Positions 24,085 to 30,896 of a DNA stretch of 36,387 nt are shown here, in pieces (within the stretch, counting starts at the first letter, position 1; the number at the start of each line of letters is the position of its first letter). The DNA comes from Bacillota bacterium (lineage in GTDB: Bacteria; Bacillota; Clostridia; Lachnospirales; Bianqueaceae): NCBI GenBank assembly GCA_017467985.1, contig JAFUJY010000304.1, forward strand, positions 1 through 36,387, written 5' to 3'. The position numbers and the translations under genes are program-made. The notes below the pieces were generated by a model. The model saw only the letters and a program-made list of their open reading frames with translations. It did no database searches and was not told the DNA's origin.

Positions 24085-24342
24085 TAAAGACTGGATTGAT
24101 TTTAGAAGGGGGCGCCATGCGGGGCCCTCTTTACCGCCGGTGTCATCGCTGTTTTCATGGAAAACGGCATTACTTTTGACGGTGCCATCGGCGTCTCCGC
24201 CGGTGATGTTTTTGTCATTCGTCCGGATGCTCCTCTGCCCGTGGGCCGCACTGAAAATGATCCCACCAAGCTTGTTACAGCCTATAGCCTTGGTCGTTTC
24301 GCAGCCCTCAGGCAGCTGGATGCTTTACATGCTTTTTTATAA
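24081..24342 (+). pseudogene. Decayed patatin-family gene (frameshift plus large internal deletion)
   Basis: The ATG overlaps the gatD stop (ATGA). It encodes MIKTGLILEGGAMRG, then an extra C in GGGGCCC shifts the frame. The other frame continues LFTAGVIAVFMENGITFDGAIGVSAG and jumps directly to a C-terminal-like tail (VIRPDAPLPVGRTENDP), for about 87 codons in total. Confidence 0.7.
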
Positions 24343-24359
24343 TTTTTCTCATAAAGCTG

Positions 24360-24388
24360 TTGACAAATCAAAAAACCGGCGTTATAAT
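24360..24388 (+). promoter_or_regulatory. Consensus sigma-A promoter of the metQNI leader
   Basis: TTGACA (24360-24365), exactly 17 nt spacer, TATAAT (24383-24388). Confidence 0.8.
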
Positions 24389-24421
24389 CAAGCCAACCTG
24401 TAAGGAAAGGAGAACACGATC

Positions 24422-24541
24422 ATGATTAAGAGCTATACCACAACCGCTATGATGATGATGGAGATGTACATGTGCCGCATGTGCATGTTTTTTGATGCTT
24501 CTTTATCCGATAAGTTCTCCATCATCGAGCCCACTGCTTGA
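24422..24541 (+). CDS. 39-codon Met/Cys-rich leader peptide (attenuator ORF)
   Basis: SD AAGGAAAGGAGA, then MIKSYTTTAMMMMEMYMCRMCMFFDASLSDKFSIIEPTA. Codons 10-22 contain 8 AUG and 2 UGC. Confidence 0.75.
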   Translation: MIKSYTTTAMMMMEMYMCRMCMFFDASLSDKFSIIEPTA

Positions 24542-24571
24542 TTGATTATCCTGGCAGATCACATTGCTTAG

Positions 24572-24610
24572 AACCGGAAGACTTCATCGGAGTCTTCCGG
24601 TTTCTTTATT
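24572..24610 (+). terminator. Attenuator terminator downstream of the Met-rich leader ORF
   Basis: A 12-bp perfect stem AACCGGAAGACT (24572-24583) / AGTCTTCCGGTT (24591-24602) with a 7-nt loop, followed by a TTTCTTTATT tail. Confidence 0.85.
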
Positions 24611-24654
24611 ATACAGGGTTACAATGCATACAAACCTTAGAAAGGACCTACATC

Positions 24655-24711
24655 ATGGGCATTTATTTCGAAAAACTTGTCCGAGAAAACTTCCGTTTCG
24701 GACGAATGTGA
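24655..24711 (+). CDS. Conserved 18-codon upstream ORF, copy A (MGIYFEKLVRENFRFGRM)
   Basis: SD AAAGGA lies 8 nt upstream and the ORF ends 58 nt before the metQ ATG. A paralogous copy sits at 27286-27354, with only synonymous differences in the 14-codon core. Confidence 0.7.
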   Translation: MGIYFEKLVRENFRFGRM

Positions 24712-24769
24712 ATCACTCCTCTCACCACTGCATTCATATATGACTAACACAAAAAAGGAGATTATTATC

Positions 24770-25615
24770 ATGAAAAAATTATTCGCATTCGTACTGACCA
24801 TTATTATTGCTCTGACTACTCTGGCCGGCTGCTCCGGTTCCGACAAAATCACCATCGCTATCCCCAACGACACCACCAATGAGGCTCGCGCCCTGCTGCT
24901 GTTGGAGGATCTGGGTTATATCACCCTAAAAGAGGGTGCAGGCATCACCGCCACCATTCTGGATATCGCCCAGAACCCTTACGACATCCAGTTTAAAGAA
25001 GTAGAAGCGGCACAGCTGCCCAATGTTCTGCAAGACGTGGACTTTGCTGTAATCAACTCCAACTATGCCATTGATGCCGGTCTCAACCCCACCAGTGATG
25101 CTCTGGGCATTGAAGGTTCTTCTTCTGCCTACAGTAATATCCTGGCCGTAAAGGAAGGCAATGAAGACTCTGATATTATCAAAGCTCTGGCCGCCGCGCT
25201 CAAGAGTCAGCAGGTGGCTGATTTCATCGCCTCCGAATATGACGGCGCCGTGGTTTCTGTTGTGGATGAACCCACCGACGGCTATGATCCCACTCTCGAC
25301 TACTCCGCTCTGGCAGGTCAGACCGTTACCGTTGCTGCCTCTCCCGCACCCCACGCCGAGATTCTGGCCATCGTTAAAGAAATCCTGGCCGCTAAGGACA
25401 TCACCCTGGACATCAAAGAATTCACAGACTATGTTCAGCCCAACAACGTGGTAGAAAGCGGCGAAATCGACGCCAACTACTTCCAGCACGCCCCCTATCT
25501 GGATGATTTCAATGCCCAGAATGGTACCCACATCGTCTCTGCTGCTGTCATTCACGTGGAGCCCCTGGGCATCTATGGCGGCAAGCAGACATCTCTGGAT
25601 GCAATTAAAAAGTAA
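24770..25615 (+). CDS. metQ: Methionine ABC transporter substrate-binding lipoprotein (MetQ/NlpA family)
   Basis: The true start MKKLFAFVLTIIIALTTLAGCSGS (lipobox LAGC) follows AAAAAGGAG. The track ORF start at 24677 is an upstream extension. The body is NlpA-like. Confidence 0.9.
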   Translation: MKKLFAFVLTIIIALTTLAGCSGSDKITIAIPNDTTNEARALLLLEDLGYITLKEGAGITATILDIAQNPYDIQFKEVEAAQLPNVLQDVDFAVINSNYAIDAGLNPTSDALGIEGSSSAYSNILAVKEGNEDSDIIKALAAALKSQQVADFIASEYDGAVVSVVDEPTDGYDPTLDYSALAGQTVTVAASPAPHAEILAIVKEILAAKDITLDIKEFTDYVQPNNVVESGEIDANYFQHAPYLDDFNAQNGTHIVSAAVIHVEPLGIYGGKQTSLDAIKK

Positions 25616-25623
25616 ATAAAGCA

Positions 25624-25661
25624 CAGCAGTCCGGCAGGATTTGAGTTCTGTCGGACTGCTG
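25624..25661 (+). other. Intercistronic stem-loop between metQ and metN (no U-tract)
   Basis: A 14-bp stem CAGCAGTCCGGCAG (25624-25637) / CTGTCGGACTGCTG (25648-25661) with one G-U pair and a 10-nt loop. It lies directly before the metN SD GGAGG. It resembles the mRNA-stabilising hairpins seen after binding-protein genes. Confidence 0.6.
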
Positions 25662-25672
25662 ATGGAGGAAAT

Positions 25673-26410
25673 ATGATTGAAATTAAGAACGTATTCAAAT
25701 CCTTTGATACTGCCGAAGGCACAGTAGAGGCATTAAAAAATGTATCCCTCTCCATCCCCGACGGCGACATCTTCGGAATCATCGGCATGAGCGGTGCCGG
25801 TAAAAGCACCCTGGTCCGATGTATTAACATGCTAGAACGACCGGACTCCGGCTCTGTTATTATTGATGGCCGCGACCTGACCACCCTCTCTGAGCTTCAG
25901 CTTCGCAGCATTCGACGGGAGGTCACCATGATTTTTCAGGGCTTTAACCTGCTTATGCAGCGTAACTGCCTGAAAAATGTATGCTTTCCCCTGGAACTTT
26001 CCGGTATGAAAAAAGCAGCAGCTACCCAGCGAGCCATGGAACTTCTGGACATTGTGGGTCTTAAGGACAAGGCCAAGGCCTATCCCGCCCAGCTTTCAGG
26101 TGGGCAGCAGCAGCGCGTAGCCATCGCCCGTGCCCTGGCCACCAACCCCAAGGTATTGCTGTGCGACGAAGCTACCAGTGCCCTGGACCCCAATACCACC
26201 AATTCCATTTTGGAACTCATCCGAAACATCAATCAACAACTGGGGATTACCGTCGTCATCATCACCCATCAAATGAGCGTGGTGGAAACCGTCTGCAAAC
26301 ACGTGGCCATTTTGGATGAAGGCCAGATTGTGGAGCAAGGTGACGTCACTGAAGTTTTCTCCCAACCCAAATCCGCCGCGGCCCGCCAGCTGTTGGCCCA
26401 TCGGAGGTAA
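25673..26410 (+). CDS. metN: Methionine ABC transporter ATP-binding protein, short form without a C-terminal NIL domain
   Basis: Walker A GMSGAGKST, signature LSGGQQQRVAIARAL, Walker B VLLCDEATSALD. The protein ends at 245 aa, right after the ABC core. Confidence 0.9.
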   Translation: MIEIKNVFKSFDTAEGTVEALKNVSLSIPDGDIFGIIGMSGAGKSTLVRCINMLERPDSGSVIIDGRDLTTLSELQLRSIRREVTMIFQGFNLLMQRNCLKNVCFPLELSGMKKAAATQRAMELLDIVGLKDKAKAYPAQLSGGQQQRVAIARALATNPKVLLCDEATSALDPNTTNSILELIRNINQQLGITVVIITHQMSVVETVCKHVAILDEGQIVEQGDVTEVFSQPKSAAARQLLAHRR

Positions 26411-26414
26411 TCCC

Positions 26415-27116
26415 ATGCTAGAAAAGTTATTTTCCAACGAAACCGTACAGGAAGCCCTGCAGGTGATCCAAACTCAATTCCCCCTTGCCATCTGGGAAAC
26501 CGTGTATGTCACCCTTCTTTCTTCTTTATTTGCTTTCATCATTGGCTTGCCCTTGGGCGTATTGCTGGTGGTAGGTGAAAAAGATGGTATCATGCCCCTG
26601 CCCACCTGGTTCATGCGCACACTTAACGTAATCATCAACCTTTTCCGTTCCATTCCCTTTTTAATTTTGATGATTCTCGTTTTTCCTTTGACCCGTTTTA
26701 TTGTAGGTACTGTAGTGGGAACCACCGCTACCATCGTCCCCCTGGTCATCGCCGCAGCTCCCTTTGTGGCCCGTCTAGCCGAAACCAGTCTGCGGGAACT
26801 GAACCCCAATATTATTGAAATGGCCCAGAGTATGGGCGCCTCTCCCCTGCAGATTATTATCAAAGTCATGATTCCTGAGAGCATTCCCTCTCTGATCTCC
26901 AACGCCACCACGGCCATCACCACCATTTTAGGCTACTCTGCCATGAGCGGTATCATCGGCGGCGGCGGTTTGGGCAACATTGCCATCAATTACGGTTATT
27001 ACCGTTACAAATATCTAATTATGCTAGCCGCAGTCATTCTTCTGATTTTGCTGGTACAATTATTCCAAAGCGTGGGGACCCGCCTGGCCACCCGCTCTGA
27101 CAAACGCTTGAAATAA
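26415..27116 (+). CDS. metI: Methionine ABC transporter permease
   Basis: The start MLEKLFSNE follows GGAGG, 4 nt after the metN stop (the track start at 26316 is an extension). It has multiple TM segments and an EAA-like loop MAQSMGASPLQIIIKVMIPES. Confidence 0.88.
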   Translation: MLEKLFSNETVQEALQVIQTQFPLAIWETVYVTLLSSLFAFIIGLPLGVLLVVGEKDGIMPLPTWFMRTLNVIINLFRSIPFLILMILVFPLTRFIVGTVVGTTATIVPLVIAAAPFVARLAETSLRELNPNIIEMAQSMGASPLQIIIKVMIPESIPSLISNATTAITTILGYSAMSGIIGGGGLGNIAINYGYYRYKYLIMLAAVILLILLVQLFQSVGTRLATRSDKRLK

Positions 27117-27164
27117 ACAAAAGGCTCACGACATACTTCGTTGAGTCGTCAATATCCATACATC

Positions 27165-27196
27165 TTGGTGTCGCTTTTGCGGCACCAATTTTTTTT
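27165..27196 (+). terminator. Intrinsic terminator of metQNI
   Basis: Stem TTGGTGTCGC (27165-27174) / GCGGCACCAA (27179-27188) with a TTTT loop, followed by a T8 run. Confidence 0.85.
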
Positions 27197-27205
27197 GAAA
27201 AAGCT

Positions 27206-27270
27206 AATAATTACCTTTTGACAAAGTAGGTAATTATTGGTATAATGCATTTACCTACTAAACAAGTAGG
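27206..27270. promoter_or_regulatory. Nested inverted repeats overlapping the metY promoter (candidate repressor operator, possibly for the operon-encoded Rrf2 protein)
   Basis: IR1 is AATAATTACCT (27206-27216) / AGGTAATTATT (27228-27238) and brackets the -35 box. IR2 is AGTAGGTAA (27225-27233) / TTACCTACT (27251-27259) and brackets the -10 box. A third AGTAGG (27265-27270) forms CCTACT-AAACA-AGTAGG. Confidence 0.6.
27218..27246 (+). promoter_or_regulatory. Consensus extended -10 sigma-A promoter of the metY-cysK-nifSU-rrf2 operon
   Basis: TTGACA (27218-27223), 17 nt spacer, TGgTATAAT (TATAAT at 27241-27246). Confidence 0.8.
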
Positions 27271-27285
27271 CATGGAGGTGTAGCA

Positions 27286-27354
27286 ATGGGAAAGGATTTT
27301 GAAAAGCTCGTCAGAGAGAATTTCCGCTTCGGTCGAATGTGTCGATGTAAATAA
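27286..27354 (+). CDS. Conserved 22-codon upstream ORF, copy B (MGKDFEKLVRENFRFGRMCRCK)
   Basis: SD GGAGG lies 7 nt upstream and the ORF ends 56 nt before the metY ATG. It is a paralogue of 24655-24711, and its tail adds Cys-Arg-Cys-Lys after the shared GRM. Confidence 0.7.
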   Translation: MGKDFEKLVRENFRFGRMCRCK

Positions 27355-27410
27355 AGGTTGAATCTTTGTACTGAAAATCTCACATTTATATACGAAAGGA
27401 ACGAATCATT

Positions 27411-28709
27411 ATGTCTAACAATTATAAATTCGAAACACTTCAGCTTCATGTAGGTCAAGAAGAGGCAGATCCCGCAACAGATGCACGCGCCGTGCCGATT
27501 TATGCTACCACATCTTACGTATTTCATGACTCTGCCCATGCGGCAGCCCGCTTTGGCCTGACTGATGCCGGTAATATCTATGGCAGACTTACCAACTCTA
27601 CGCAGGATGTATTTGAAAAGCGCATTGCAGCCCTTGAGGGTGGCGTTGGGGCGTTGGCTCTTGCTTCGGGTGCGGCAGCAATTACTTATGTATTACAGGC
27701 TCTCGGGCAGAACGGCGGACATATCGTAGCCCAAAAGACGATCTACGGCGGAAGCTATAATCTGCTCGCACATACCCTTCCTAACTTTGGTATCACCGCC
27801 AGTTTTGTCAACATCCACGACCTTGCTCAGGTGGAGGCGGCGATCAAGGAGAATACGAGAGCACTCTATATTGAAACCCTCGGCAACCCCAACAGTGACA
27901 TTCCTGACATCGATGCTCTTGCAGAGCTCGCTCATAAGTACGGTCTTCCCCTTGTGGTTGACAACACCTTTGGTACGCCCTATCTCATCCGCCCTATCGA
28001 GCACGGTGCAGATATCGTCGTTCACTCCGCAACCAAGTTTATCGGCGGTCACGGAACGACCCTCGGCGGCGTAATCGTTGACTCAGGTAAGTTTGATTGG
28101 GCAGCATCGGACAAATATCCCGCTATTGCCGCTCCTAATCCTTCCTACCACGGTATATCCTTCGTCAAGGCGGCGGGTGCGGCAGCATTTGTCACCTATA
28201 TCCGCGCGATCCTGCTTCGTGACACGGGCGCATCCATTTCTCCCTTTGCGGCCTTCCTACTTTTGCAGGGAACCGAAACCTTATCCCTCCGGTTGGAACG
28301 CCACGCAGAAAATACCAAAAAGGCAGTAGAATTCCTTACAAAGCATCCACAGGTTGAGAAGGTCAATCATCCCTCCCTTGCAGACCACCCCGACCATGCG
28401 CTTTACCAGCAATATTTCCCCAACGGCGGTGCTTCCATCTTCACCTTTGAAATCAAGGGTGGCCAGGCAGAGGCACATAAGTTTATTGATAACCTCAAGA
28501 TCTTTTCACTTCTCGCCAATGTTGCGGACGTCAAAAGTCTTGTAATTCACCCCGCAACCACCACACACAGCCAGCTCTCCGAACAGGAGCTTTTAGATCA
28601 GGGGATCAAGCCAAACACCATTCGTCTTTCCATCGGAACGGAACATATCGATGATATTATTGCCGATCTGGAAAGAGGATTTGAGGCGGTAAAGAGGGCA
28701 GAATCATGA
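27411..28709 (+). CDS. metY: O-acetylhomoserine sulfhydrylase / aminocarboxypropyltransferase (PLP, Cys/Met metabolism family)
   Basis: [17 protein letters not shown] ... [12 protein letters not shown], and the PLP-lysine motif [11 protein letters not shown]. 432 aa. Confidence 0.9.
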
Positions 28710-29638
28710 GCAGAATATATACATCCGCAGATGAATTGATTGGAAAAACTCCCCTTTTGGAACTCACACATATGGAAAAGACCCTTGGACTGAAGGCAAG
28801 AATCCTGGCAAAGCTGGAATATTTTAATCCTGCAGGATCTGTCAAGGACAGAATCGCCAAGGCGATGATCGAAGACGCGGAAGCCTCGAACAAGCTTACC
28901 CCGGGCTCGGTCATCATTGAACCTACCTCGGGTAATACCGGCATCGGACTTGCATCAGTTGCCACCGCTAGGGGATACCGTGTGATACTGATAATGCCCG
29001 AAACCATGTCAGTGGAGCGCAGACAGCTTATGAAAGCCTACGGTGCAGAGCTTGTGCTTACCGAGGGTGCGAAAGGAATGAAGGGCGCAATTGCCAAGGC
29101 CGAAGAACTGGCAGCAGAAATTCCCAACAGCTTCATTCCCGGTCAGTTTGTCAATCCTGCGAACCCCCGGGCCCATCGTGAAACCACAGGTCCTGAAATT
29201 TACGAGGATACTGATGGCGATGTGGATATTTTCGTTGCAGGTGTTGGCACAGGAGGTACGATCACAGGCGTTGGTGAATATCTGAAATCCAGAAAGCCCG
29301 ACATAGAGATCGTCGCCGTTGAGCCGGCAACCTCTGCAGTTCTATCCACAGGTGTTGCCGGAGCCCATAAGATTCAAGGTATTGGTGCAGGCTTTATTCC
29401 TGACGTACTGAATACCCAAATCTATAACGAGATCATCACCGTCCAAAACGAGGATGCTTTTGCCACGGGTAAACTGATTGGTAAGAGCGAAGGCATACTT
29501 GTGGGAATTTCCTCGGGCGCTGCGGCCTATGCGGCGATCGAGCTTGCCAAGCGTTCCGAAAATGAAGGAAAGACTATTGTTGTTCTGCTCCCCGACACGG
29601 GTGACAGATATTTATCCACACCGCTGTTTGCTGACTAA
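28706..29638 (+). CDS. cysK: Cysteine synthase A (O-acetylserine sulfhydrylase)
   Basis: [10 protein letters not shown] (PLP Lys), [10 protein letters not shown] and GTGGTITG. There is a 4-nt ATGA overlap with metY. Confidence 0.92.
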
Positions 29639-29705: not shown

Positions 29706-30896
29706 ATGAGAATATACGTAGACAACGCCGCCACCACAAAAATAAGTGAGGGGGCAATAAAAACAATGATACCATACATGAATGAAATATATGGTAACCC
29801 CTCAAGCCTTCACTGCGAAGGACAGAGGGCGAATGAAGCCCTTGCGAATGCCCGTGAACGCATTGCTAGGCTTCTGGGCTGCGAGCCAAGAGAGATCACC
29901 TTTACCTCGGGCGGCAGTGAAGCTGATAATCAAGCCATTCTCTCCGCCGCAAGACTTGGCGAGAGAAAAGGAAAAAAGCATATCGTATCCACTGCTTTTG
30001 AGCATCATGCCGTTCTGCACACCCTTGAAAAGCTGGAAAAGCAAGGCTTTGAGGTTACACTTCTTGACGTTCACGAAAATGGACTTGTAAGTGCTGAGCA
30101 GGTATACAATGCGATTCGTGAGGATACCTGCCTGGTGACTGTCATGTACGCCAACAACGAAATCGGTACGATTCAACCCATATCTGAGATTGGAGCAGTT
30201 TGTCACGAAAAAGGTGTAATCTTTCACACCGATGCGGTGCAAGCGGTGGGACATTTACATATCAATGTCCAGGAGCAGCATATCGATATGCTTTCTCTGT
30301 CTGCACACAAATTTCATGGCCCCAAAGGAATTGGTGTACTCTATGCAAGAAAAGGAATACCGCTGACCACTCTGATCGAGGGCGGTGCCCAAGAGAGAGG
30401 CAAGCGTGCCGGAACAGAAAACATCCCTGCAATCATGGGTATGGCCACCGCATTGGAGGAATCGTGCGCCAAGATCCACGAAAACACCCTCAAACTCACT
30501 GCCCTTCGTGACAAGCTGATTCTTGGCCTTTCTCAAATCCCCCATTCTGCCCTTAACGGAGATCATGAACACAGGCTGCCGTCCAATGTCAGCTTCTGCT
30601 TTGAAGGAATTGAAGGCGAATCACTCCTTCTGCTTCTTGACGACAAAGGAATCTGCGCTTCCTCAGGCTCGGCGTGTACTTCAGGCTCCCTCGACCCTAG
30701 CCACGTACTCCTCGCCATAGGCAGAGTACACGACGTTGCCCACGGCTCTTTGCGCCTATCCTTGTCAGAGGAAAATACCGAGGCCGAACTAGAATATATT
30801 CTCGAGTCTGTAAAAGAAGTTGTAGGATATCTTCGCAGTATCTCTCCCATTTGGAGAGACCTCTGCGAAGGCAAAAAGAATTTTATTTTGAAATGA
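29706..30896 (+). CDS. nifS: Cysteine desulfurase (NifS/IscS class)
   Basis: TSGGSEADN, PLP Lys in SAHKFHGPKGIG and the catalytic Cys loop SSGSACTSG. 396 aa. Confidence 0.92.
   Translation: MRIYVDNAATTKISEGAIKTMIPYMNEIYGNPSSLHCEGQRANEALANARERIARLLGCEPREITFTSGGSEADNQAILSAARLGERKGKKHIVSTAFEHHAVLHTLEKLEKQGFEVTLLDVHENGLVSAEQVYNAIREDTCLVTVMYANNEIGTIQPISEIGAVCHEKGVIFHTDAVQAVGHLHINVQEQHIDMLSLSAHKFHGPKGIGVLYARKGIPLTTLIEGGAQERGKRAGTENIPAIMGMATALEESCAKIHENTLKLTALRDKLILGLSQIPHSALNGDHEHRLPSNVSFCFEGIEGESLLLLLDDKGICASSGSACTSGSLDPSHVLLAIGRVHDVAHGSLRLSLSEENTEAELEYILESVKEVVGYLRSISPIWRDLCEGKKNFILK

Follow-up and report, generated by a model that had tools for sequence, protein, structure and literature searches.

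The 36,387 nucleotides (nt) analyzed here, referred to as the window, are positions 1 to 36,387 of contig JAFUJY010000304.1 from a Bacillota bacterium of the family Bianqueaceae (Clostridia; Lachnospirales). The window contains two sulfur amino-acid operons, metQ-metN-metI and metY-cysK-nifS, and the 5' leader of each carries a very short upstream open reading frame (uORF) with its own ribosome-binding site and start codon. The two uORFs, designated A and B, and their Shine-Dalgarno (SD) sequences are the following:

24655..24711, + strand: uORF A, 18 codons, MGIYFEKLVRENFRFGRM then stop; leader of metQ-metN-metI
24640..24646, + strand: SD-like GAAAGGA of uORF A, 9 nt before the ATG
27286..27354, + strand: uORF B, 22 codons, MGKDFEKLVRENFRFGRMCRCK then stop; leader of metY-cysK-nifS
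27274..27280, + strand: SD sequence GGAGGTG of uORF B, 5 nt before the ATG

The reading frame of uORF A runs from the ATG at 24655 to a TGA at 24709-24711, and that of uORF B from the ATG at 27286 to a TAA at 27352-27354, with the metY ATG (27411) following 57 nt on. Both mini-ORFs had been picked out in a first-pass annotation of the window and are present exactly where it placed them; its claim that they differ in their core by synonymous changes only also held. The core, FEKLVRENFRFGRM, occupies 42 nt (14 codons) and contains eight DNA differences between the two copies, seven at third codon positions and one CGA/AGA change, all eight of them synonymous. As 27 of the 126 possible single substitutions in the core (21%) are synonymous, a result of eight out of eight would arise by chance with P ~4e-6. 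When the window was searched with the back-translated core, allowing up to three mismatches, the matches were uORF A and uORF B, where dinucleotide shuffles lead one to expect 0; an nhmmer search of the window did not find a third copy. Mechanical ORFs of 80 and 93 amino acids on the − strand (24637-24879 and 27258-27539) run across the uORFs and into the beginnings of metQ and metY; they are very likely not genes, because the synonymous pattern sits in the + frame. The two copies have different endings. Copy A, which precedes the methionine transporter, ends in Met-stop and thus has Met as its sole regulatory codon; copy B, which precedes metY-cysK, ends in Met-Cys-Arg-Cys-Lys and has Met plus two Cys codons.

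To find relatives, two scans were carried out, scan 1 of one genome per species with a degenerate DNA pattern for RENFRFGRM, and scan 2 of metagenome contigs with a degenerate pattern for FEKLxRENF; family counts given here and below are among the matches listed. Scan 1 yielded at least 119 loci relative to a chance expectation of about 2 (a rough estimate from the information content of the pattern), and at least 115 of these had an in-frame ATG and then x-x-[YFL]-F-E-K-L-[VL] upstream, with the peptide followed by a stop or by a short Cys-rich tail. Four scan 1 loci (L010, L016, L019, and L080), which are not from Clostridia and lack FEKL upstream, were rejected as chance matches. Scan 2 yielded at least 120 loci, of which at least 81 were family members; about a third were unrelated long proteins and were left out. 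Record titles in scan 1 were almost all Clostridia, among them Lachnospiraceae, Oscillospiraceae, Ruminococcus, Faecalibacterium, Acetatifactor, Kineothrix, Dysosmobacter, Mogibacterium, and [Eubacterium] saphenum, and included one cultured carrier, Mediterraneibacter agrestimuris DSM 111629. The family consensus is M-x-x-[YF]-F-E-K-L-[VL]-R-E-N-F-R-[FNY]-G-[RVL]-M, after which comes either a stop or a short tail rich in Cys; in scan 2 the C-terminal variants were RFGRM, RYGRM, RNGRM, RNGVM, RNGLM, RNGCM, and CFGRM, with tails such as CLCCLC, RLCC, and CCCC. An SD-like motif preceded the uORF start in 151 of 167 members. An nhmmer search of all loci for diverged copies gave one convincing extra member, at 1507-1544 on the − strand of L006, where a second copy in the same genome reads MNRFFLRLLRANFRFGRCM then stop; it has Ala in place of Glu11 and ends in Cys-Met instead of Met, so that the terminal sulfur codons can evidently be permuted.

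The gene that follows the uORF was MetY-like in about 90 of 117 scan 1 instances; about 20 had a gene for a MetQ-like lipoprotein there and one had CysK. In scan 2 it was mostly MetY. The family therefore marks a sulfur amino-acid regulon. Rarer next genes in scan 2 were a 328-amino-acid MtaA/URO-D-like methyltransferase (seven loci), a relative of cystathionine gamma-synthase/lyase (one), and a lanthionine synthetase C-like (LanC-like) protein (one, L234). The ~328-amino-acid protein, related to MtaA/CmuA/URO-D, replaces MetY after the uORF at L134, L136, L170, L172, L210, L220, L227, and L121; it scored 34-45 bits, far under the family cutoffs, indicating a distant relationship, and its setting suggests a role in methionine synthesis or in methyl transfer to a thiol.

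The uORF has no gene call in the source contigs. Three family peptides matched 0 families in NCBIfam (E up to 10) and Pfam (E up to 0.01), and a collection of 5.8 billion proteins held 103 clusters, with no Pfam domain for the peptide; two of the 103 carry unrelated domains (PF00160 and PF01053), and the names given, for two clusters, were "hypothetical protein." In a collection of 8.3 million papers neither the peptide string nor the topic led to a description, and the uORF motifs of Brewer et al. (2021) were considered and rejected as different elements. The family is thus large and apparently undescribed. These results bear out three expectations of the first-pass annotation, namely that the peptide would be linked in cis to sulfur amino-acid operons (MetY, MetQ, CysK, and others lie downstream family-wide), that it would be conserved upstream of met/cys genes across Clostridia (at least 115 plus at least 81 relatives), and that it does not correspond to a described leader (no match in Rfam, Pfam, NCBIfam, or the literature).

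Each scan left one half of the peptide unconstrained, and the free half could be read without ascertainment bias. In scan 1 the free codons specified Phe5 in 102 of 111 members, Glu6 in 80 of 111, Lys7 in 80 of 111, and Leu8 in 107 of 111, the last through six codons (CTC 41, CTT 39, TTA 9, CTG 8, TTG 6, CTA 4); position 9 was V in 62, L in 43, I in 5, and A in 1, through twelve codons. In scan 2 the free codons specified Arg14 in 58 of 59 (six codons), Gly16 in 59 of 59 (four codons), and Met18 in 59 of 59, with positions 15 and 17 variable, and an ATG lay exactly four codons before Phe5 in 56 of 59. Per-nucleotide entropy was 3-periodic. By the Nei-Gojobori method the proportions of synonymous (pS) and replacement (pN) differences, taken as a check of the dN/dS kind, were 0.78 versus 0.27 for codons 5-9 and 0.73 versus 0.19 for codons 14-18; synonymous sites were saturated and replacement sites were not. 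Residues were kept while codons varied, with pS far above pN, demonstrating selection at the peptide level, as the first-pass annotation had supposed. The pattern is one of purifying selection on the peptide sequence, of the kind seen in arrest peptides next to the stall site.

The end of the peptide is rich in sulfur codons. The residue after Met18 in scan 1 was Cys in 56 members, stop in 29, Trp in 9, and Arg in 7, with Cys again at +3; about a quarter of RFGRM-type members ended Met-stop, like copy A. In scan 2 the tails after Met18 were 24.5% Cys, concentrated at +1, +3, and +4; by contrast, all MetY ORFs counted held just 73 Cys codons. Met-stop endings occurred in 9 of 19 MetQ-type and 19 of 84 MetY-type members (Fisher P = 0.044, with the types classified by hand), which is suggestive only of their being commoner before MetQ than before MetY. 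Codons 16 and 17 (24700-24705 and 27331-27336 in the window) were biased: Arg17 of the RFGRM type was CGA in 109 of 111, although the MetY ORFs next to the uORF use CGA for 4.5% of their Arg codons, and Gly16 was mostly GGA (23% of Gly codons in MetY ORFs). In the RNGxM subfamily codon 17 was either Val, with GTC in 30 of 32 (GTC is 17% of Val codons in MetY ORFs), or Arg (CGA 17, CGG 2, CGC 2, CGT 1, AGG 1). A role for rare CGA before Met as a universal slow-decoding device was rejected, as codon 17 of the RNGxM subfamily is often Val. The UG after the Met codon was kept whether it was read as part of TGA, TGY, or TGG.

Conservation of this kind could also be found in a small protein that acts in trans, an amphipathic product of 18-25 residues, often with a C-terminal Cys cluster, that is released to work on an enzyme, a transporter, or the sulfur regulon's regulator and is placed in the leader merely for co-expression. 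Besides the purifying selection, the alternation of charged and hydrophobic residues with a helical period, as read from the consensus, agrees with this possibility, as do the Cys clusters, which could bind metal or form persulfides, and the 103 clusters called as proteins in public data. However, the peptide always lies directly upstream of, and co-oriented with, a sulfur-metabolism gene, often in several copies per genome before different operons, as in the window; a quarter of the RFGRM-type members lack the tail; and the ORF is interwoven with the SD-sequestering helix described next. We regard action in trans as very improbable.

The segments of the window that take part in pairing between the uORF and the downstream SD region are as follows:

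24688..24710, + strand: uORF A 3' half (Asn12 to Met18 plus TG), the SD-pairing strand in relatives
24716..24720, + strand: CTCCT, 5 nt past the uORF A stop and complementary to AGGAG of the metQ SD; may act as an alternative anti-SD
24755..24760, + strand: metQ SD sequence AAGGAG, with the metQ ATG at 24770
27319..27341, + strand: uORF B 3' half (Asn12 to Met18 plus TG), supplying the 5' strand of each of the helices P1 and P2; duplex −13.7 kcal/mol
27381..27387, + strand: CACATTT box, complement of GAATGTG (27335-27341) and 3' strand of P2
27393..27403, + strand: CGAAAGGAACG, metY SD region, 3' strand of P1

When metY-type leaders were folded individually, a nested long-range helix recurred. 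In P1, AAYUUCC(G)UUUCGG (codons 12-16) pairs with (A)CGAAAGGAA(RU), the metY SD region, and in P2, (C)GAAUGUG (codons 17-18 plus UG) pairs with a CACAUUY box, the ACATT of which is conserved in an otherwise variable spacer. In an alignment of 72 sequences 83% of the cells were paired, compared with 44-52% when the partner was slid by one to three columns; the duplex energy had a mean z of −2.57 relative to dinucleotide-shuffled uORF halves, and the SD lay inside the duplex in 70 of 80 leaders. In minimum free energy (MFE) folds the fraction of SD nucleotides paired to the uORF 3' half was 0.65, versus 0.08 with that half shuffled. When 29 nt were masked as the footprint of a ribosome holding Arg17 in the P site and Met18 in the A site, the SD-paired fraction dropped from 0.73 to 0.41; with the footprint at codon 5 it was 0.74. 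In copy B the MFE fold contains P2 and the top of P1. These results demonstrate complementarity of the uORF 3' half to the SD region at the level of the family.

Peptide and RNA are therefore both constrained, and the uORF serves as the anti-SD strand. The first-pass annotation had held that the peptide is conserved and not an RNA fold; the first part stands, and the exclusion of RNA does not, since in most metY-type relatives the 3' half of the uORF is complementary to the SD region and to a box in the spacer. This pairing plausibly explains nucleotide constraints beyond the peptide, such as CGA at Arg17 and the UG after the AUG, with P2 accounting only in part for the bias at codons 16-17. 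A GUCCGA/UCGGAC hairpin noted earlier as possible in copy A is indeed present there, but with AGA as the Arg10 codon in 79 of 111 members it cannot form in most relatives, and it was rejected as a feature of the family. The similarities noted earlier in the flanks of the two copies proved real, and the copy B −10 box and P2 box are among them; the CACATTT box sits in the downstream TCTCACATTT block of copy B.

Could the reading frame be incidental to a structured non-coding RNA, such as a riboswitch? Conserved blocks and nested complementarity to the SD region are what such an RNA would display. Rfam gave no match in the window at gathering score, nothing relevant in 24200-27500 at E up to 10 (two sub-threshold microRNA hits), and no S-adenosylmethionine (SAM) riboswitch or T-box in 18 related loci. 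The ATG and SD at a fixed distance, the 3-periodicity, the six Leu codons, the saturated synonymous sites, the low pN, and the near absence of covariation also speak against it, and we disfavour this explanation as highly improbable.

We propose, with moderate confidence, that the uORFs encode leader peptides, that ribosome pausing at their Met/Cys codons unmasks the downstream ribosome-binding site, and that the nascent chain contributes to the pause. From the patterns described above we infer that the uORF is translated, that ribosomes pause on it, what triggers the pause, and in which direction the switch works. The downstream gene's ribosome-binding site would be held in the long-range helix, the other strand of which is the 3' half of the uORF. 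When Met-tRNA (and Cys-tRNA, where Cys codons are present) is plentiful, the uORF would be translated and terminated quickly, the helix would re-form, and the gene would be off. When Met-tRNA or Cys-tRNA is scarce, the ribosome would wait at codons 17-19, with codon 17 in the P site and Met18, or a Cys codon after it, in the A site, covering the anti-SD strand; the SD would then be free and the downstream gene translated. Scarcity of Met-tRNA or Cys-tRNA is most simply the cause of the lingering. A hungry-codon model by itself fails on the ~13 other conserved residues and on the fixed N-terminal length; we therefore suggest that the 13-residue nascent chain, residues 5-17, which ends just before the Met codon, would occupy the exit tunnel, where it would lengthen or condition the pause, acting like an arrest peptide. 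The polarity, off when the amino acid is plentiful, fits biosynthesis and uptake genes, as well as the placing of a classical Met/Cys-rich attenuator in tandem with the uORF at about 20 loci, copy A among them.

Several observations weigh against this proposal. For a mechanism based purely on hungry codons, a single Met codon makes a thin sensor, and copy A has no Cys codon to add to it. Copy A can form just GAATG/CATTC (24731-24735) and a partial P1, and in its MFE fold the metQ SD pairs elsewhere; the predicted partners of this SD are UAUUUC or the CUCCU after the stop. In copy B, P1 is weakened by a C.A mismatch and the MFE fold leaves the AAGGAA core unpaired. Covariation in P1 and P2 was weak (three pairs with double changes) and did not exceed the shuffle control, because the uORF strand hardly varies, and RNAalifold found no consensus structure in the 72-sequence leader alignment, because the spacer is too gappy. 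The duplex with the cognate SD region, at a median of −15.5 kcal/mol, was only modestly better than duplexes with other ribosome-binding regions of the same loci, at −12.4 kcal/mol (P = 3e-4). MetQ-type leaders use other registers, in which AGGAG often pairs with CUCCUC of the Leu8-Leu9 codons, and long spacers with GC-rich hairpins are present in many RNGVM-type relatives, of which one has a terminator-like GGGGAGACUUCCCC and U-rich tail (L155) and another has none; the output module is therefore not uniform. As the CTCCT at 24716-24720 pairs with the metQ SD in the ribosome-masked fold, it is a possible alternative anti-SD for metQ in these predicted structures.

RNGVM-type leaders share a conserved spacer, seen in L155 (about 100-190), L237, L197, L150, L218, L157, L151, and L101, ..AGGAGAG-GGUAGSGCGCAACGAAGUGCGNCCGU-R-GGGGAGACUUCCCC-U-rich, that contains two hairpins, the second of which is terminator-like in L155. 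Rfam gave no match for L101, which has the same spacer; this search did not include the RNGVM-type loci themselves. Masked folding did not reveal switching between terminator and antiterminator in the RNGVM-type leaders: masking left the hairpin of L124 and L137 intact, and the terminator finder gave spurious hairpins. In L121, L127, and L209, which carry RNGRM-type uORFs, the stop codon marks the start of a hairpin, UAG-RCUGAAAGUYCUUUAGYC-U, that shows compensatory changes between loci (GACUGAAAG../..CUUUAGUC versus GGCUGAAAG../..CUUUAGCC).

The pause might instead be set by a small molecule bound by the nascent chain together with the tunnel, with the ribosome stalling at Met18 or at the stop for reasons other than tRNA charging; methionine, SAM, homocysteine, O-acetylserine/O-acetylhomoserine, and sulfide are candidate ligands. 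Such a sensor would be akin to TnaC with tryptophan, SpeFL with ornithine, or plant CGS1 with SAM. The conservation of more than 12 non-regulatory residues, the fixed N-terminal length, and the invariant Met18 would be accounted for; a quarter of the RFGRM-type members end in Met-stop and hence offer no Cys codon to go hungry, and the joining of the same peptide to different downstream RNA modules is as expected for a sensor made of ribosome and peptide. Nevertheless, if the stall frees the SD, an end-product ligand such as Met or SAM has the wrong polarity for biosynthesis genes, the 24.5% Cys in the tails is most simply read as hungry codons, and the peptide shows no likeness to a known arrest motif in NCBIfam or Pfam. 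We consider ligand sensing of this kind unlikely.

The genes, promoters, and further leader elements around the two uORFs are:

24360-24388, + strand: upstream sigma-70 promoter, 12/12 matches, start of the transcript carrying uORF A
24422-24541, + strand: Met/Cys-rich leader ORF (..MMMMEMYMCRMCM..), upstream of uORF A on the same transcript
24571-24603, + strand: intrinsic terminator, after the Met/Cys-rich leader ORF and before uORF A
24770..25615, + strand: metQ (NlpA/MetQ lipoprotein), Pfam PF03180
25673-26410, + strand: ABC ATPase after metQ, Pfam PF00005
26316-27116, + strand: permease after the ABC ATPase, Pfam PF00528
27214-27230, + strand: second palindrome copy, CCTT-N9-TAGG, one mismatch, spanning the −35 box
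27218..27246, + strand: uORF B-metY promoter, TTGACA-17-TATAAT with TG extension, sigma-70, 12/12 matches
27254..27270, + strand: CCTA-N9-TAGG palindrome, directly after the −10 box
27411..28709, + strand: metY (O-acetylhomoserine sulfhydrylase), TIGR01326, above cutoff
28706-29638, + strand: cysK, TIGR01139, above cutoff
29706-30896, + strand: NifS-type cysteine desulfurase, TIGR03402, above cutoff

The metQ product scored below the curated cutoffs of the NCBIfam MetQ/NlpA models (TIGR00363, 157 bits versus 228.85; PRK11063, 156.7 versus 374). uORF B is the first ORF on the transcript from the 27218-27246 promoter, the −10 box of which is TATAATGCAT (27241-27250); the copy A flank keeps TACAAT and lacks a good −35. 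Neither the interval from uORF A to metQ nor the one from uORF B to metY contains a terminator-like site.

In 90 of 162 loci the 17-bp palindrome CCTA-N9-TAGG occurs no more than 130 nt upstream of the uORF, always with a spacing of 9; its density is 6.3 per kb in the region up to 130 nt upstream of family uORFs versus 0.03 elsewhere, an enrichment of about 200-fold. It tends to lie either across the −35 box (ACCTATTGACAnnGTAGGT) or directly behind the −10 box, and is probably the operator of a sulfur-regulon repressor, judging from its placement and enrichment. In the RNA, the copy behind the −10 box would in addition fold into a 5'-terminal hairpin, and before copy A the palindrome is reduced to a decayed half-site. 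In L063 an ORF about 240 nt past the uORF looks, by eye, like a regulator of the Rrf2 family (CymR/IscR-like) and could be a candidate for the operator-binding factor. The Met/Cys-rich leader ORF belongs to a separate family, found upstream of the uORF in about 20 loci, which include the window, L004, L013, L018, L027, L042, L048, L054, L085, L090, L095, L097, and L099; its ORFs are 32-65 amino acids long with the core ..T-x-MMMEMCMWTC-x-MCM..FSD-x-FS.., and in the window and the loci inspected a strong terminator (..GUCUUCCGGUUU) follows. This leader resembles a classical Met/Cys transcription attenuator that stands in series with the uORF.

With these other elements present, the uORF might be a plain hungry-codon leader, or a constitutively translated ORF that opens the helix, conserved on account of RNA pairing and initiation context, with true control by the factor that binds CCTA-N9-TAGG and, in copy A, by the upstream Met-rich attenuator. 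The overlap of the 3' half with the anti-SD strand, the constraint on CGA (109/111), GTC (30/32), and the UG after the AUG, the operators that flank the promoter in 90 of 162 loci, and the separate Met/Cys-rich attenuator upstream in about 20 loci are all in keeping with this explanation. Yet codons 5-11 (FEKLVRE) are outside the conserved metY-type helices and their residues are kept through up to six codons; Gly16 uses four codons and Arg14 six, and retention of Leu across both CTN and TTR is not selectable by RNA pairing. For these reasons we think a plain leader distinctly unlikely.

Mechanistically, the closest analogue is the polycysteine attenuator of mycobacteria, in which ribosomes paused on leaderless small ORFs (sORFs) block a structure in which the next gene's ribosome-binding site is sequestered, an example of translational attenuation (Canestrari et al., 10.1101/834739). 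Like the uORFs described here, these are short ORFs before cysteine/sulfur operons, with several operons coordinated by one kind of sORF. However, the mycobacterial sORFs are defined solely by runs of at least two to three Cys codons in succession and are believed to have independent origins (10.1101/834739), and candidate Cys leader peptides in Actinobacteria are likewise defined by Cys runs alone (PMC1262725). In contrast to the leaderless sORFs, the window uORFs have their own SD sequences, Cys codons are few and often absent (none in copy A, Cys-Arg-Cys in copy B), Met is invariant, and some 13 further residues show homology and purifying selection across families of Clostridia.

The window uORFs also resemble, in part, several classical systems. 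In ErmCL-ermC, MifM-yidC2, and SecM-secA, a conserved chain of 10-20 residues lies at the stall, and the stalled ribosome melts an SD-hiding hairpin. The uORFs share with these the conserved peptide and the predicted SD unmasking, with stalling putative here, whereas those leaders answer antibiotics or protein export rather than amino-acid supply and lack sequence similarity to the uORFs. The trpL, hisL, pheL, and thrL leaders conserve only their regulatory codons and act through terminator/antiterminator hairpins. They too are short translated leaders with codons for the amino acid of their own pathway, in which ribosome position sets the mRNA fold; in contrast, the window uORFs have no downstream terminator, a single Met plus zero to two Cys codons, and a conserved non-regulatory peptide. 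Among nascent chains that sense metabolites, TnaC senses Trp, SpeFL ornithine, and the MTO1 region of plant CGS1 SAM, CGS1 being, to our knowledge, the sole known nascent-peptide sensor in methionine biosynthesis. These resemble the uORFs in using a conserved peptide to control genes of a related pathway and have no homology to them; unlike the uORFs, the CGS1 sensor is part of the main ORF of a eukaryotic mRNA, whose decay it triggers. The usual met/cys regulators in Firmicutes are the S-box (SAM-I), SAM-III (SMK box), and Met/Cys T-box. They serve the same regulon (metY, metQ, cysK), and the SMK box also sequesters an SD, whereas the element here is a translated ORF without an Rfam match in the window and 18 related loci.

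What would be new is leader-peptide attenuation with a homologous, arrest-peptide-like peptide as the putative Met/Cys sensor; attenuation itself is known. Many gut and rumen Clostridia apparently use a sequence-conserved translated leader peptide instead of an S-box or T-box for Met/Cys genes, and this peptide control is layered over a probable repressor operator and, in some operons, a Met/Cys-rich classical attenuator. The family also illustrates that functional ORFs shorter than 25 codons are missed by gene callers, and it flags members of the sulfur regulon that are hard to annotate, such as the MtaA/URO-D-like methyltransferase. If the peptide acts in the exit tunnel, a sulfur amino-acid sensor would join the short list of regulatory nascent chains, and its leader would provide a compact part of ~120 nt for engineering Met/Cys-responsive expression in Clostridia. 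A bolder and rather doubtful extension is that FEKLVRENFR-x-G-x-M is a true sensory arrest peptide through which the ribosome answers to the cell's sulfur amino-acid state, either because decoding of the single Met (and Cys) codon becomes hypersensitive to charged tRNA or because the chain binds a sulfur metabolite, and which has been joined to different RNA outputs (SD registers, terminator-like hairpins). If so, it would be a bacterial counterpart of plant CGS1 that replaces the S-box and T-box in many gut Clostridia, one sensor with many outputs, like a riboswitch aptamer with different expression platforms.

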